DNA of 26,099 bases from a virus. Its lineage: Duplodnaviria > Heunggongvirae > Uroviricota > Caudoviricetes. The DNA is taken from positions 1 through 26,099 of the IMG/VR virus record IMGVR_UViG_2526164602_000011; one strand, given 5' to 3'. Position 1 is the stretch's first letter, and each line of letters begins with the position of its first letter. This document shows, one piece after another, positions 6,001 through 18,000 of this stretch. The position numbers were made by a program.

Positions 6001-9000
6001 GAGCTCGTTAAATATGGTTGTAACACGTTTATTTGTCCCGACAATTCGATGGAGCCGGGAAATGTACCACTATATATCGGCCTGCCACGAATTGATCCAG
6101 CAAGCCAGACTGCCAAGCTGTCATTCCAGGAATGGTTGTCAGAACAAAAAGAAAAAATAGACGTTGATTGCGGATGTGTAAGCATCGAAACGCTTACGCA
6201 CTGGATGAAATCCGCTTATGAGGCTGGTAACTCTCCGGTAACTCCGGATAGTTGGATAAGCTGTAGTGATCGAATGCCTGAAAAGGGCCAGAACGTGCTT
6301 ATTTCGGTGAATTTCGATAGCTCTCTGGTTGAACCGCTAATATGCTCCGCACGCTATACCGGAAGCACCTTTCGGCGCGGAGATGCAACGATTAAGCCGG
6401 GTAATGGTATTGAGCAAGCAACTCACTGGATGCCGCTACCAGAACCGCCGCAGGAGGTGAACTGATGGAAAATGAAGGCGATAATATCATCACACTGGTG
6501 CAGCCAAAGCGCGATGAAGAGAAGCTGCTGAACATTACAGTAACTGGCAGAAAAAACTACACACAACAGAGCTGTAAGCATCGGGCCATTGAGGTTCATG
6601 AACAGGATCACGTTATCCTGTGCTTGCAGTGCGGATGTGTTGTGGACCCTTTTCAGTATGTTCTGCGGTGTGCGAACGATGGTGAGGCTGTGGTGAGAGA
6701 GATTAGACAGCTTCATAACAGACACGATCAGCTCCGAGAATCTGTTGCCAGCCTCGAGCGTGAAGAAAAGAACACCAAAGCACGGTTGCGGGCAGCAAGA
6801 ACTGCAATACTGTATGCGGAAAATGACCTTAAAAATATTGAGCAGAAGGTGAATCAATGACCTGGCCTGAAGCATTCGCAAATGTAGGAACAGTAATGGC
6901 GGTGGTGCTGGTTGTGTATTCGATTTGTCGCTGGAGATAAAAACGGTTTGCGGGAAAAGGAGAGTTAAGTAGAATTGCTGCGGGTGCTTGAGGCTATCTG
7001 CCTCGGGCATGAACACCAACGGCAGATAGAGAAAAGCCCCAGTTAACATTACGCGTCCGGCAAGACGCTTAACATTAATCTGAGGCTCAATCCATGCTGA
7101 ACACATGTAGGTTAGCCTCTTACGTGCCGAAAGGCAAGGAGAAGCAGGCTATGAAGCAGCAAAAGGCGATGTTAATCGCCCTGATCGTCATCTGTTTAAC
7201 CGTCATAGTGACGGCACTGGTAACGAGGAAAGACCTCTGCGAGGTGCGAATCCGAACCGGTCAGACGGAGGTCGCTGTCTTCGTAGACTACGAATCTGAG
7301 AAGTAAGAGACCAGGCGGGGGAGTAATCTCCCGCCACCTCTGATGTGTCAGGCATCCTCAACGCACCCGCGCTTTACCATACTGAAAATGCTGTTTGAAT
7401 GTTCATCTCTGAAAGAGGACTATGAATGAAAAAGGTATTGATTGCAGCACTTATTTCTGGTGTGTCTTTTGGCGCTTTTGCACAGCAGGGCGGTTTCCAA
7501 GGGCCTGAAGCAGAGCGTTCAACAGTAGCGCAGGCAAAAGAACTGAAGGATGATGCATGGGTTATCCTTGAAGGGAGCATCGTTAAAAAAGTGGGTGATG
7601 AACGTTATGAGTTTCGTGACAATAGCGGGACAATTGTCACGGATATCGATGACAGCATATGGGCCGGTCAGAATGTTTCTCCGAAAGACAAAGTAAGAAT
7701 TGAGGGTGAAATTGATAAAGACCTGAGCAGTGTTGAAGTGGATGTAAAGGCACTGAAATTATTAAAGTAACCGTCCCAGCTTGCTAAGCCCGTCTTACTG
7801 ACGGGTTTTCTGTTTGTTATCACAGTATTTTTCAACAAAACACCGAATCTTATCCGGTGCGCTGTAAAACCCCGTCCTTCAGGGCGTGGAGGATGTCAAA
7901 TGGCGTATATTTGGATATAAGAAAGCCATCCAATACTGGCTGAAAAAACTCCTCATCGATATCATCGTGGGCCTGAATAGTTCCATCCGCAATTCTGATT
8001 GCCGGTATTGTTCCCCGGCGATAAGGGGTGAACATCATCCCGGTTACATCAGATCGCCTAATAACATATCAAGATTATTTTGCTCATAAATGCTATTCGC
8101 CATTACCGTTGCTGCTTCAGCTTAATGAAACGCATAGATCCGCCATGCTTTTTCAGCAAATACGCTGCCATTTGCGCAACTTTTTCTTCATTAAACATAA
8201 ATCGGCTCTCTGTATCACATGAAATGCTCTTCTGACTATATGTTAATAGCTCCGGTTATTACAGGTCAATGAGTGTTTATTTCTTAATCAGCCCCGCACT
8301 TCCGTACGGGGCCATTTCTGTTAATCCACTCCCACTTTTTTGTTGTACTCGCGGTTAAACCGATCCACGGCAATTTTCATATCCCGCTCTACCGATTTCA
8401 CCATCGCCGACTGTTGCGCCAGACTGAGAGTACTGTCGGCGTAAATGGCATCACGCTGTTTACGCAAATCCTTCAGTCTCTTCCGGGTATCCTGCATAAG
8501 CCCGTTCATCGACAATTTTCCGTTGTTCTCGTCAATGAACGCCGTTCTTTCTGCACCGGTCAGACTCTTCAGCTCTGCGTGATACTGCGCAATCTCTGTC
8601 ATCCGGTCGTACATCTTCTGCTGGTCTGCATACGGCATCACCTCCCCCGAAATTTTCCCCAGGAAGGGCACCTGCTGTTCCGGTATATCAATACCATTCA
8701 GCGATTTCACCGCCGCATCCGTGGTTTTGGAAATGAAGCGCCCTGTCCCTCCGGAGATATAGTCAATCCAGAATTTCAGCGATTCCGGTGTGATATCCAC
8801 CGCGCCGGGACGGTACTGGCTGCCACCTGAGAACGCATTCAGCCAGGATGCAAACGCCTTGTACGCTTCTGGCGTTGAACGTCTTCCCAGCTGGCTGTCA
8901 GGTTTTGGTGTACCAAACGGCATGTTCTCCTGGTAAATCTGCGCCCCCATGAAGTTTTCATTCATGGCAAGGTTCGCAAACGGACGCAGAATGGTCGGCG

Positions 9001-15000: not shown

Positions 15001-18000
15001 GCTGTGACTGTGCTTCCGGCGTCACTTCCTGTTGTGGGCGAATGACTTCTCGTATTGCCTGAAACTGTTGTTCTTCAGTCTCGGTGCGCCCCTCTTTCTG
15101 GCTGAGTCTGCGGTATTCCTCAAGCAGTTCAGAACGCGGCTTCGCCTTCAGCTCATTCATCACAGCCTGTCGCTTCGTCTGTTCGTCCAGTTCATTCAAC
15201 AACTGGCTGGCAGCTTCCCGGCGATGAGCTGCGGATGCGTCACCCTCTGTTGCCATATCCGCATCAGCATACTGCTCCAGAAGCTGCTCGCGATTCATGC
15301 CCTGCATGGATTCACGCTGCTGCGCCACCGGATCAACAGATTCTGGTTGCGGGGCTGCGTCGTCCTGCTGCACGGTTTCAGCATCACGCATGGCGGTTTC
15401 TTCTGCGGCCTGACGTCTGCCACGATATCCGGCAACCGCACCGAATGGAGCCCCCATCGCAGCACCAAAGGCTGCACCTTCGATCGTTGCGTCAGCCACG
15501 CCCTCCCACGGTGACACACCCATTCCGGCGGTCTCACGCAATGCCGTGTTTTCCTGATAGCGTGAATAGCCGCCCTGCGCCGCATTAATCGCCCCCTGTT
15601 CCGTGGCATTTCTGACAATGCCGCTTTTAACGGTCTTCGCTGTGCCTCGTGTCACCAGATTAAACAGTTGTGCGTCACCCAGTTTTGCCGCCATGGCATT
15701 CACAGCCAGCAATTCAGGATCGGTTGCCAGCTGCGCGCGCACCTCATCGGCAACACGCTCTTTTGCCAGATCCATTTTCTGGCGATCAGTAAGCTGTGCG
15801 TGCTGCGGGTCGGCGTCAATGGACAAAAACGTCTGCTGAAATTTCGGTGACTGCGCCAGCTCAGAGTAATCAGCATTAAGAACAGCATCTGCTGCCGCCA
15901 TTGCACTCTGCCCCTGTGCACTTACAGTGGAATGGGTGATCAGGCCCGCCTGGAATAAATCCGGCATTTTTTTATCGACAGCTTCTGCTGCCAGTGCCGT
16001 GGCTCTTTCCGGCTGCATCCCTGCCGCGATGTATTTTTTCTCCAGCCCGGCGGTCAGCATTTTTCGCAGTGTGACATCACCCACCTTTCTAGCCACACCG
16101 CCAGCAACCATATCAGGTACAAGCGCACCAATCAGGTTTACACCCTTCGCCACCCAGACCGCAGAATCATTATAGCCTTCGGTCATCGGCGTATTCAGCG
16201 CACGAACTGCACCCGGCGACATCTTACCGGTCAGCCATTCATCAGTGGCTTTGGCACCATCACTGACAGCCTTACCGGTTGCCTTCAGACCTTTACCGAC
16301 AATATCAGTAACCGCGTTTTTGCCATCAGGCAGGGTATCGATGACCTCATCAGCCCCCCTGCTGCCACCGGCAAAAATATCCTGCACAGTTGCGACACCC
16401 GGCAGCCCCATACGGCTGAACTCATTTAAAATACGCGCCCCTGTTTTTACCGGGCTCTGAATCATCGCATCACCGAGTCCACGGGCCATTTCCCCTGTTC
16501 CCCGGACGGACTGGGCGAAACCTTTACCCATTGTTGGCAATACATCGCCCAGGCTGAACGACGTACTGTTATCCTTCCAGCGATTCGGATCAGAGAAAAA
16601 TGCTTCATAGCTGTCAGTTTCGCCGGGTTGCTGAATGTTCAGGCTGTTACGATTCTGGTTACCGAGTTGCGCCTCAGGACGCTGTTCCTCTGAATAGGCC
16701 ATACAGACTCCATAAAAAAACCCGGCACAATGGCCGGGCATCAGGAAATGGTATTAATGGAATATCGTGAATTACTGGGCGTAATTCTGTTTCAGTCCAC
16801 GGATAAACTGAGATGCAGATGAAGCACTTTCATCTCTGGCCTGTTCCCCCCTGGCCTTTTGAATACGGAGAAAATTCGCATACCCGTTCTCCAGCAATTT
16901 CTGATTCTGAGGTTCCAGCATTTCAGGCTGACGGGCCGCTACATTTCTGGCAAATGACAGCTTGTCAGGATCATCTCCCGCCCAGTTGATAACCTGTTGC
17001 TGAAGTTTTTGTTGCTGAATTTTCTGTTGATGCGGTTGTGAACCAGTCGCAGCATAATATTCATCCACCGCAGCCTGAGCATTACCGCCATTCTTGATCG
17101 CGTCCGCCGCTACGTTGCTGGCCCCCTTCTGAAGCTCTTTCAGAGAAAGTCCCTGCTGCTTCGGCATAAAATAACCATAATTTTTCGATATCTCTGCAAA
17201 TTTGCTGCGATCCCTGACCTGAGCGATAGCCTTATCAACGGGTATCGCCAGCACGGTTTGATCATCAGGGTGCGCACTGCCGTATTCTGTTACAGGTTTA
17301 TGCGCGGTGGAGCCATCGCTGTATGTGAGATCAAGGCCAATAAGTACGTACCCTTCCTGCTGCGCTGGTACGATACTGCCAATCCTGGCCTCTTTTATCG
17401 TTTTGTCCCCGGTTGAATCAGGCATGCCAATACGCTGTTGTAGTTCCGGGGCAAACACGCCGGAAAGCACATCGAGATTTTCCGGGGTATTCAGCGAATC
17501 GATCGCCATGTCCGGCTTATCACCAAAGATTTTTTGCAGGTTGATCACGGCCTGACCCGCTTTCGCTGCATAGCCTTCGTTTGACATAAGAATTAATGGA
17601 TGTCCCTTTGGCAGCTGCCCGAACAGACGCGTTGCAGCCTCCTGATCGCCAGCCTCAATTGCTTTTCCAAGCGCTTCCATTAGTGGCTGGCTATGGGCAA
17701 TCATATCGTTATACTCAAGCCGTCGCTGGTTGTATTTCTGCAACTGGAGTCGCTGCTGCTCCATACCCAGTGACGCATTCCGGTAATTCTGGTTAGCGTT
17801 AAACTCCCTCTCCTTCAGTGCATAATTACGGTCGTCAACTTTGGCTCTGTAATCAAAGTTCCGCTGATCAACGTTTTTATTATGTTCAAACTGAGACTGC
17901 GCAAACTCAAAATCGCGCTCGTTATTTTTCTGTTGCCGGGCAAGCTGTGCTTCACGCAGACCAAGCTCCTTACGACGGGTCATTGCCTGGTCAACGGTGC

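Follow-up and report, generated by a model that had tools for sequence, protein, structure and literature searches.

The 26,099-nucleotide window analyzed here (positions 1 to 26,099 of IMG/VR record IMGVR_UViG_2526164602_000011, a virus of the class Caudoviricetes) carries on its minus strand one giant gene, whose product of 2,793 residues is the subject of this study. We propose, with a probability of about 60%, that this protein is an essential, virion-carried polyvalent protein of the short-tailed Shiga toxin (Stx) phages of the 933W/phi24B group, which would lie inside the particle and be ejected together with its enzyme cargo. The gene is already known. Its product is 100% identical to L0134 of the Stx2 phage 933W, which RefSeq labels an "LPD38 (or LPD5) domain-containing protein" and whose domains are already annotated, and both the essentiality and the virion presence of L0134-type protein are on record. 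As far as we have found, the new details are a chassis-like pattern at the C terminus, the assignment of LPD1 to a CLCA_X zincin, a derivation of the central cassette from conjugative elements and the avoidance of cysteine. Stx phages carry Shiga toxin genes between Escherichia coli strains, and the giant protein occupies about 14% of their genome.

Mondal et al. deleted the gene of identical length in Sp5, ORF80 (ECs1242), and obtained neither plaques nor lysogens, a phenotype that was complemented (PMC5155283). The deletion particles had normal-looking heads and normal DNase-resistant DNA packaging yet failed to bind tail-fiber antibody (given as "data not shown"), and the authors placed ORF80 under tail formation, function unknown (PMC5155283). 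The requirement of the gene for both plaque formation and lysogenization argues for a structural or ejection role and not for an optional effector. In phi24B, gp47 (vb_24B_48), to which the giant protein is 97% identical (2,725 of 2,807 positions), was abundant in purified virions by mass spectrometry and absent from the cryo-electron microscopy and negative-stain models; the preprint proposes that gp47 is an encapsidated ejection protein, and its authors name the organization of gp47 in the capsid an open question (bioRxiv 10.64898/2026.04.10.717836). In phage JC1, the 4,515-residue gp69, which has the same C-terminal domain, ranked second among the virion proteins in mass spectrometry (PMC9144972). 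A protein that is abundant by mass spectrometry, invisible by cryo-electron microscopy and essential looks internal and probably ejected, and does not look like an optional accessory. The phi24B data also give substance to the idea, put forward in a preliminary description of the window, that the protein is packaged in the virion.

The amino acid composition of the protein points in the same direction. There is no cysteine among its 2,793 residues, and 150 representatives of the family that shares its C-terminal module contain just 51 cysteines in 378,557 residues (0.13 per 1,000), with none at all in 121 of the 150. In contrast, the homologous central cassette in proteins that lack the C-terminal module, found in conjugative elements, has 4.4 cysteines per 1,000 residues, and ten other late genes of the window have 7.5 per 1,000, a figure that includes four cysteine-free genes directly upstream of the giant gene. 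As both controls are normal, the constraint on cysteine tracks the C-terminal module and not the fold of the cargo. This pattern would mark a protein that is kept free of disulfide bonds, the likely reason being that it is threaded through the tail in an extended state and then meets the oxidizing periplasm. Because family-wide avoidance of cysteine fits such an unfolded passage, we counted it in favor of ejection. The four upstream genes (16772..19414, minus strand; 421, 83, 148 and 218 residues) have no cysteine in 870 residues, and their products could be co-packaged or co-ejected partners. The 83-residue protein is of glycine-zipper type and is annotated "bacteriocin"; a bacteriocin homologue was found in virions of phi24B, where it was put down to contamination (bioRxiv 10.64898/2026.04.10.717836).

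The main rival to ejection is that the giant protein is a structural component of tail assembly or of the tail lumen, such as a scaffold, plug or core of the short tail, which is not delivered and whose enzyme-like domains are secondary. The Sp5 phenotype favors this explanation, since particles that package DNA lack tail-fiber antibody binding and the authors regarded ORF80 as a tail-formation gene (PMC5155283). The gene also sits among tail genes, and in full particles of phi24B unresolved "internal tail contents" constrain the orientation of the tail (bioRxiv 10.64898/2026.04.10.717836). However, the tail and portal of phi24B were modeled without the giant protein, a mass of 308 kDa far exceeds what a short tail lumen would need, a variable enzyme cargo with conserved catalytic motifs is hard to square with a pure scaffold, and the avoidance of cysteine across the family points to translocation. 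We therefore regard a purely structural role as the strongest competitor, but as considerably less probable than ejection.

The coding sequence lies in an uninterrupted minus-strand open reading frame (ORF) at 8321..16741, which has 2,806 codons when counted from its first ATG. The annotated start is Met14, at window position 16702, which is preceded by a GGAG ribosome-binding site and gives the 2,793-residue, 308-kDa product (8321..16702, stop codon included). PHROG 616 aligns over its full length (positions 1 to 2793 of 2793) with residues 14 to 2806 of the frame, and the RefSeq coding sequence also begins at Met14; together with the GGAG sequence, this indicates that Met14 is almost certainly the real start. 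A longer start with a claimed leader or signal peptide, as in the phi24B record, was rejected on the same grounds of PHROG 616 and GGAG. The preliminary description had reported a single unbroken 8.4-kb frame at 8321-16741, which the ORF list and the translation bear out, and 2793 codons, a count that is accounted for by the Met14 start and does not hold for the first-ATG frame. Unless stated otherwise, residue numbers below refer to the 2,806-residue frame; numbers in the annotated protein are lower by 13. The spurious first ATG (16741) overlaps a strong terminator-like, GC-rich hairpin at 16713..16739 on the minus strand (7-bp stem with 6 GC pairs, followed by a run of seven T), which separates the stop codon of the 421-residue upstream gene from the GGAG/ATG start of the giant one. 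Without read-through by late antitermination, this hairpin may keep the level of the giant protein down.

A frame of this length might also be a product of chance or misassembly and not one gene, and some older records could be cited in favor of this: AP004402 annotates 19 small "hypothetical proteins" beneath the giant gene, and the phi24B record has antisense ORFs (vb_24B_50c-52c). This explanation is refuted. The DNA is 100% identical in 933W and many other Stx phages and about 100% identical in VT2-Sakai, at least 80% of the frame is covered in 186 phage records and in 423 of 5,426 complete E. coli genomes, profile matches run along the whole length, peptides have been detected in phi24B virions, and in Sp5 the gene has a phenotype with complementation. 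The window represents a circularly permuted 933W-like Stx phage: the giant gene, the last of the late (tail) operon, leads into the early region, and compared with 933W the left arm of that region is mosaic.

The protein or its segments were subjected to sequence and profile searches of Pfam, NCBIfam, PHROG, PADLOC and the PDB, and to structure modeling and fold searches. All of the domains described here are encoded on the minus strand. The N-terminal region (residues ~14-470, 15332..16702) has no Pfam domain; homologues of its 467 residues turned up only in E. coli and Salmonella, in phages, and it contains a weak glycine-zipper-like segment (15404..15487). There follows an acidic, Pro/Glu/Gln-rich stretch of low complexity (residues ~447-905, 14027..15403), defined by composition, which is probably disordered; residues 1-25 of the mid-region structure model have a predicted local distance difference test score (pLDDT) below 30. 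A helical domain (residues ~913-1063, 13553..14005) opens a cassette that comprises Pfam LPD5 (residues 1064-1213, 13103..13552), a putative CLCA_X-type zincin domain (residues 1195-1450, 12392..13159) that overlaps Pfam LPD1 (residues 1374-1453, 12383..12622), and a second, small zincin-like domain without annotation (residues ~1489-1649, 11795..12277). Beyond the cassette lie Pfam MuF_C (residues 1763-1852, 11186..11455) and a conserved C-terminal module of about 900 residues (~1900-2802, 8336..11044), of which Pfam LPD38 (residues 2489-2694, 8660..9277) covers about 200. LPD5, LPD1, MuF_C and LPD38 are all families that Iyer et al. established in their work on the polyvalent proteins of conjugative elements and phages, where LPD5 was considered possibly enzymatic (Iyer et al. 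2017, PMC5512222). PDB sequence and profile searches returned no solved relative for any part of the protein, and the model of the C-terminal module was of moderate confidence (pLDDT 64), with uninformative fold searches. An assignment to the AAA+ ATPases of COG1483 (Mondal et al.) was not reproduced, as Pfam and NCBIfam searches gave no ATPase domain. These four Pfam families and the two zincin-like domains agree with the polyvalent architecture suggested in the preliminary description, as does the linker of residues ~450-900 with its claim of low-complexity sequence between conserved blocks; matches to tape-measure or tail-fiber proteins, the conventional alternatives it had named, were absent from Pfam and PHROG.

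Two HExxH motifs, HEWFH (residues 1297-1301) and HEIIH (residues 1564-1568), occur at exactly the positions first reported for them, 12853..12839 and 12052..12038, against about 0.037 expected by chance from the composition of the protein. Neither falls within a Pfam domain, and Pfam searches with excised segments around each motif gave sub-threshold noise only (EF-hand, DEK_C, and Peptidase_M76 at an E value of 0.2). The NCBIfam profile NF041907 (CLCA_X), however, matched residues 1182-1437 of the annotated protein through positions 3-245 of its 250 (E value, 9e-44); at 149.8 bits, the match stays under the curated full-length cutoff of 260 bits. CLCA_X is a zincin family of phages and plasmids (Lenart et al. 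2013, PMC3650047). The first motif, HEWFHSLD (12853..12830), keeps the form HEW[FWLM]H in all 100 segments that were aligned. In a 63-sequence alignment, conservation reaches at least 90% for the histidine of an AHYE sequence upstream of the motif and for an E..AR.FE helix downstream, as it does for a downstream aspartate of the first zincin (D415). The phage-type metallopeptidase (MPTase) clade of Iyer et al. has a histidine that ends strand 2 and an aspartate three residues past the motif (PMC5512222); the first motif fits this clade. Since the E..AR.FE helix lies within Pfam LPD1, LPD1 is best read as the C-terminal part of the CLCA_X-type peptidase domain and not as a separate unit. The second motif has HE..H conserved in about 40 distant homologues, with a glutamate some 50 residues downstream. 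In the structure models both regions show a three-stranded sheet that leads into the HExxH helix and a further helix, with structural similarity to solved zincins, and we predict that both are metallopeptidases. An hhalign comparison of the two regions aligned only the 9-residue HExxH stretch, with a probability of 9%; this overlap, limited to the motif, indicates that the second zincin is of a different lineage and did not arise by recent duplication.

The phi24B preprint attributes a wall-digesting function to the protein, as an ejection protein whose "MuF-C metallopeptidase" would open the cell wall by digesting peptidoglycan (bioRxiv 10.64898/2026.04.10.717836). Some relatives do carry wall hydrolases, namely, a phage lysozyme in a Salmonella homologue and a lytic transglycosylase-like domain in JC1 gp69. 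However, MuF_C is a predicted RNase of the BECR fold (PBECR) and not a peptidase (Iyer et al., PMC5512222), so that we reject the label as a misnomer. The two zincin domains, moreover, resemble protein endopeptidases (lethal factor, PPEP and CLCA_X), and searches of the giant protein turned up neither a lysozyme or transglycosylase domain nor one of the M23/M15 type. Digestion of peptidoglycan by this protein thus seems improbable. Only the MuF_C part of the MuF proteins was found by Pfam; the N-terminal, portal-associated MuF domain of the MuF/SPP1 gp7 proteins was not.

The cassette of residues ~895-1722 (helical domain, LPD5, CLCA_X zincin and second zincin) is homologous to stand-alone proteins of about 870 to 920 residues, to which it is some 31 to 38% identical and which retain both HExxH motifs. 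One of these LPD5-LPD1 proteins, P0092 (874 residues), is encoded in a conjugative element next to TraG, TrbL and MobA/MobL genes. The proteins of conjugative elements differ from the phage protein in that they stand alone, lack the C-terminal module and have a normal cysteine content.

The C-terminal module, in contrast, belongs to a large family of its own. An exhaustive search with the last 954 residues of the giant protein matched 8,522 cluster representatives, 4,761 of them with E values below 1e-30, as one continuous unit of about 900 residues. Among the best 150 representatives, from which the position statistics and the cysteine counts were taken, the median distance between the end of the module and the C terminus of the protein is 3 residues (15 or fewer in 140), whereas the sequence ahead of it varies from 0 to 4,294 residues, in proteins of 780 to 5,181 residues. 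Just 44 of the 150 have any similarity to the remainder of the 933W protein. Other members carry alternative N-terminal cargo, including ART-PolyVal, RadC, pyrophosphatase, phage lysozyme (in a Salmonella homologue), methyltransferase and LPD3. Sequenced phages with the module are the Stx phages, ~60-kb Vibrio phages, ~57- to 61-kb Ralstonia phages and the Bcep22-like phages of Burkholderia, and in the Vibrio phage and in Bcep22 the giant gene is again the last of the virion operon. The same last-gene position, in an intact-looking operon, is held in a metagenomic phage by a gene for a 1,042-residue protein that is nearly module only. Two short "module-only" proteins were dropped as evidence, one being an IS66-split gene and the other part of a degraded prophage. 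In one Logan enterobacterial assembly (L002, 7264..9879), an IS66 element interrupts a homologue that is 74% identical to the giant gene, leaving parts of 2,109 and 990 residues.

The family also bears on whether the giant protein could be an accessory anti-defense effector like DarB of phage P1, injected against restriction or immunity and dispensable on permissive hosts. PHROG 10089, "DarB-like antirestriction," matches residues 2364-2694, relatives bear methylase, helicase and ART domains, and Iyer et al. propose anti-defense roles for polyvalent proteins generally (PMC5512222). However, the match covers positions 4260-4538 of the 4,647 in the profile, which represent the shared C-terminal module only; Pfam and NCBIfam searches gave no N6-adenine methyltransferase or helicase domain, PADLOC gave no match, and neither plaques nor lysogens form without the gene (PMC5155283). 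We consider such a role unlikely, if slightly less so than digestion of the cell wall. For the same reasons, the emphasis that the preliminary description had laid on countering host defenses is unsupported.

Taken together, these observations suggest the following course for an internal, ejected protein. A few to several copies would be packed within the head or the tail lumen, with the constant ~900-residue C-terminal module directing incorporation and being required for a complete infectious particle. At infection, the protein would exit through the tail in an extended form, before or along with the DNA, and might help to build or extend a DNA conduit across the envelope. The cargo upstream of the module, consisting of LPD5, the two zincin peptidases and the BECR-type RNase-like MuF_C, would thereby be delivered. 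Once delivered, the two zincins would most plausibly cleave either the polyprotein of which they are part or proteins of the host; processing of the polyprotein or of host targets by zincins has been suggested for polyvalent proteins by Iyer et al. (PMC5512222).

Several points weigh against this proposal. To our knowledge, classical ejection-protein mutants of P22 and T7 do not show a tail-assembly defect. The Sp5 deletion phenotype was taken by its authors to be such a defect (PMC5155283). The giant protein has no strongly hydrophobic transmembrane segment (best 19-residue Kyte-Doolittle mean, 1.38), and Pfam searches of the whole protein and of excised segments gave no peptidoglycan hydrolase domain. 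Finally, some of the short "module-only" proteins are insertion sequence-split genes or prophage remnants.

A broader hypothesis, which we advance tentatively and hold to be doubtful on balance, is that the C-terminal module is a general chassis for protein delivery in short-tailed phages of the 933W, GP4 and Bcep22 types. Any N-terminal enzyme cargo would be packed into the head by the module and threaded in unfolded form through the tail into the host, a route that would have left its trace in the loss of cysteine across the family. If so, the module would be a phage counterpart of the delivery domains of polymorphic toxins, and could be reprogrammed. Should it prove to be a cargo-independent device for packaging and ejection, thousands of giant phage proteins in the databases would be explained, and a route for loading proteins into phage particles would be at hand.

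The gene immediately upstream of the giant gene (16772..18037, minus strand) encodes the 421-residue partner protein and corresponds to ORF79 of Sp5, which is essential and counted as a "tail" gene. In a Vibrio phage the same position ahead of the giant gene is taken by a homologue (E value, 3e-12), and relatedness to gp74 of Bcep22 was not detectable. An ORF of 567 residues at 23345..25048 (minus strand) matched PHROG 511, "internal virion protein" (E value, 8e-281), has 8 cysteines and is possibly another internal or ejected phage component. By coordinate transfer from the EDL933 annotation, genes for small toxins of the Hok/Gef family flank the region of the giant gene, one at 7151..7306 (plus strand), just past its 3' end, and one at 19966..20106 (minus strand), inside the tail gene block. 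Between the tail genes lie a gene for an Ail/Lom outer membrane protein and two small "moron" genes for membrane or outer membrane proteins (20339..21073 and 21164..22065, both minus strand). The left arm of the window (1..8320) is the early region, for which the matching records list integrase, Bet/RecT, exonuclease, Ea22-like and related genes. Its match, at 99.1%, to the Stx1/Stx2 phages of strain Morioka V526 and to EDL933-Stx falls into three pieces. Collinearity with the EDL933 prophage annotation breaks down in places, as in a shorter Ea22-like gene, and the first ~300 bases of the window are without a match in the best records.

Among known systems, Sp5 ORF80 (ECs1242) and phi24B gp47 are the same protein, essential and present in virions, with no difference of substance. 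The "DarB-like" giant virion proteins Bcep22 gp75 and JC1 gp69, and likewise the homologues in GP4-like Ralstonia phages and in Vibrio phages, have in common with it the C-terminal module (27% identical over 770 residues; E value, 7e-54), the last-gene position in the virion operon and association with the virion by mass spectrometry. They differ in length (4,500 to 4,600 residues) and in cargo: where the giant protein has LPD5, two zincins and MuF_C, they have lytic transglycosylase, methylases, helicase and LPD3. With the CLCA_X and lethal factor/PPEP-type zincins the likeness is one of domain, which is here embedded in a giant protein and is a prediction only, at 150 bits against a cutoff of 260. 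The T7 proteins gp14/15/16 and P22 proteins gp7/16/20 offer an analogy only: they are internal virion proteins of short-tailed phages, needed for infectivity and not for DNA packaging, whereas the giant protein is a single polypeptide with enzyme cargo and has no detectable similarity to them in sequence or fold. The virion RNA polymerase of N4/DEV (~3,400 to 3,500 residues) is likewise a giant protein in the head of a short-tailed phage that is delivered at infection; its C-terminal region holds a zincin MPTase required for encapsidation (Iyer et al., PMC5512222), and it has been proposed to form part of the ejection apparatus (PMC11445570). It differs in its RNA polymerase cargo and in having no LPD38 module, and no homology in sequence or fold was detected between the giant protein and these characterized ejection or core proteins of podoviruses (T7, P22 and N4/DEV). 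The phage-type polyvalent proteins of Iyer et al. (2017) are the class that the giant protein matches, both in its multidomain build and in the location of its gene among those for virion structural proteins.

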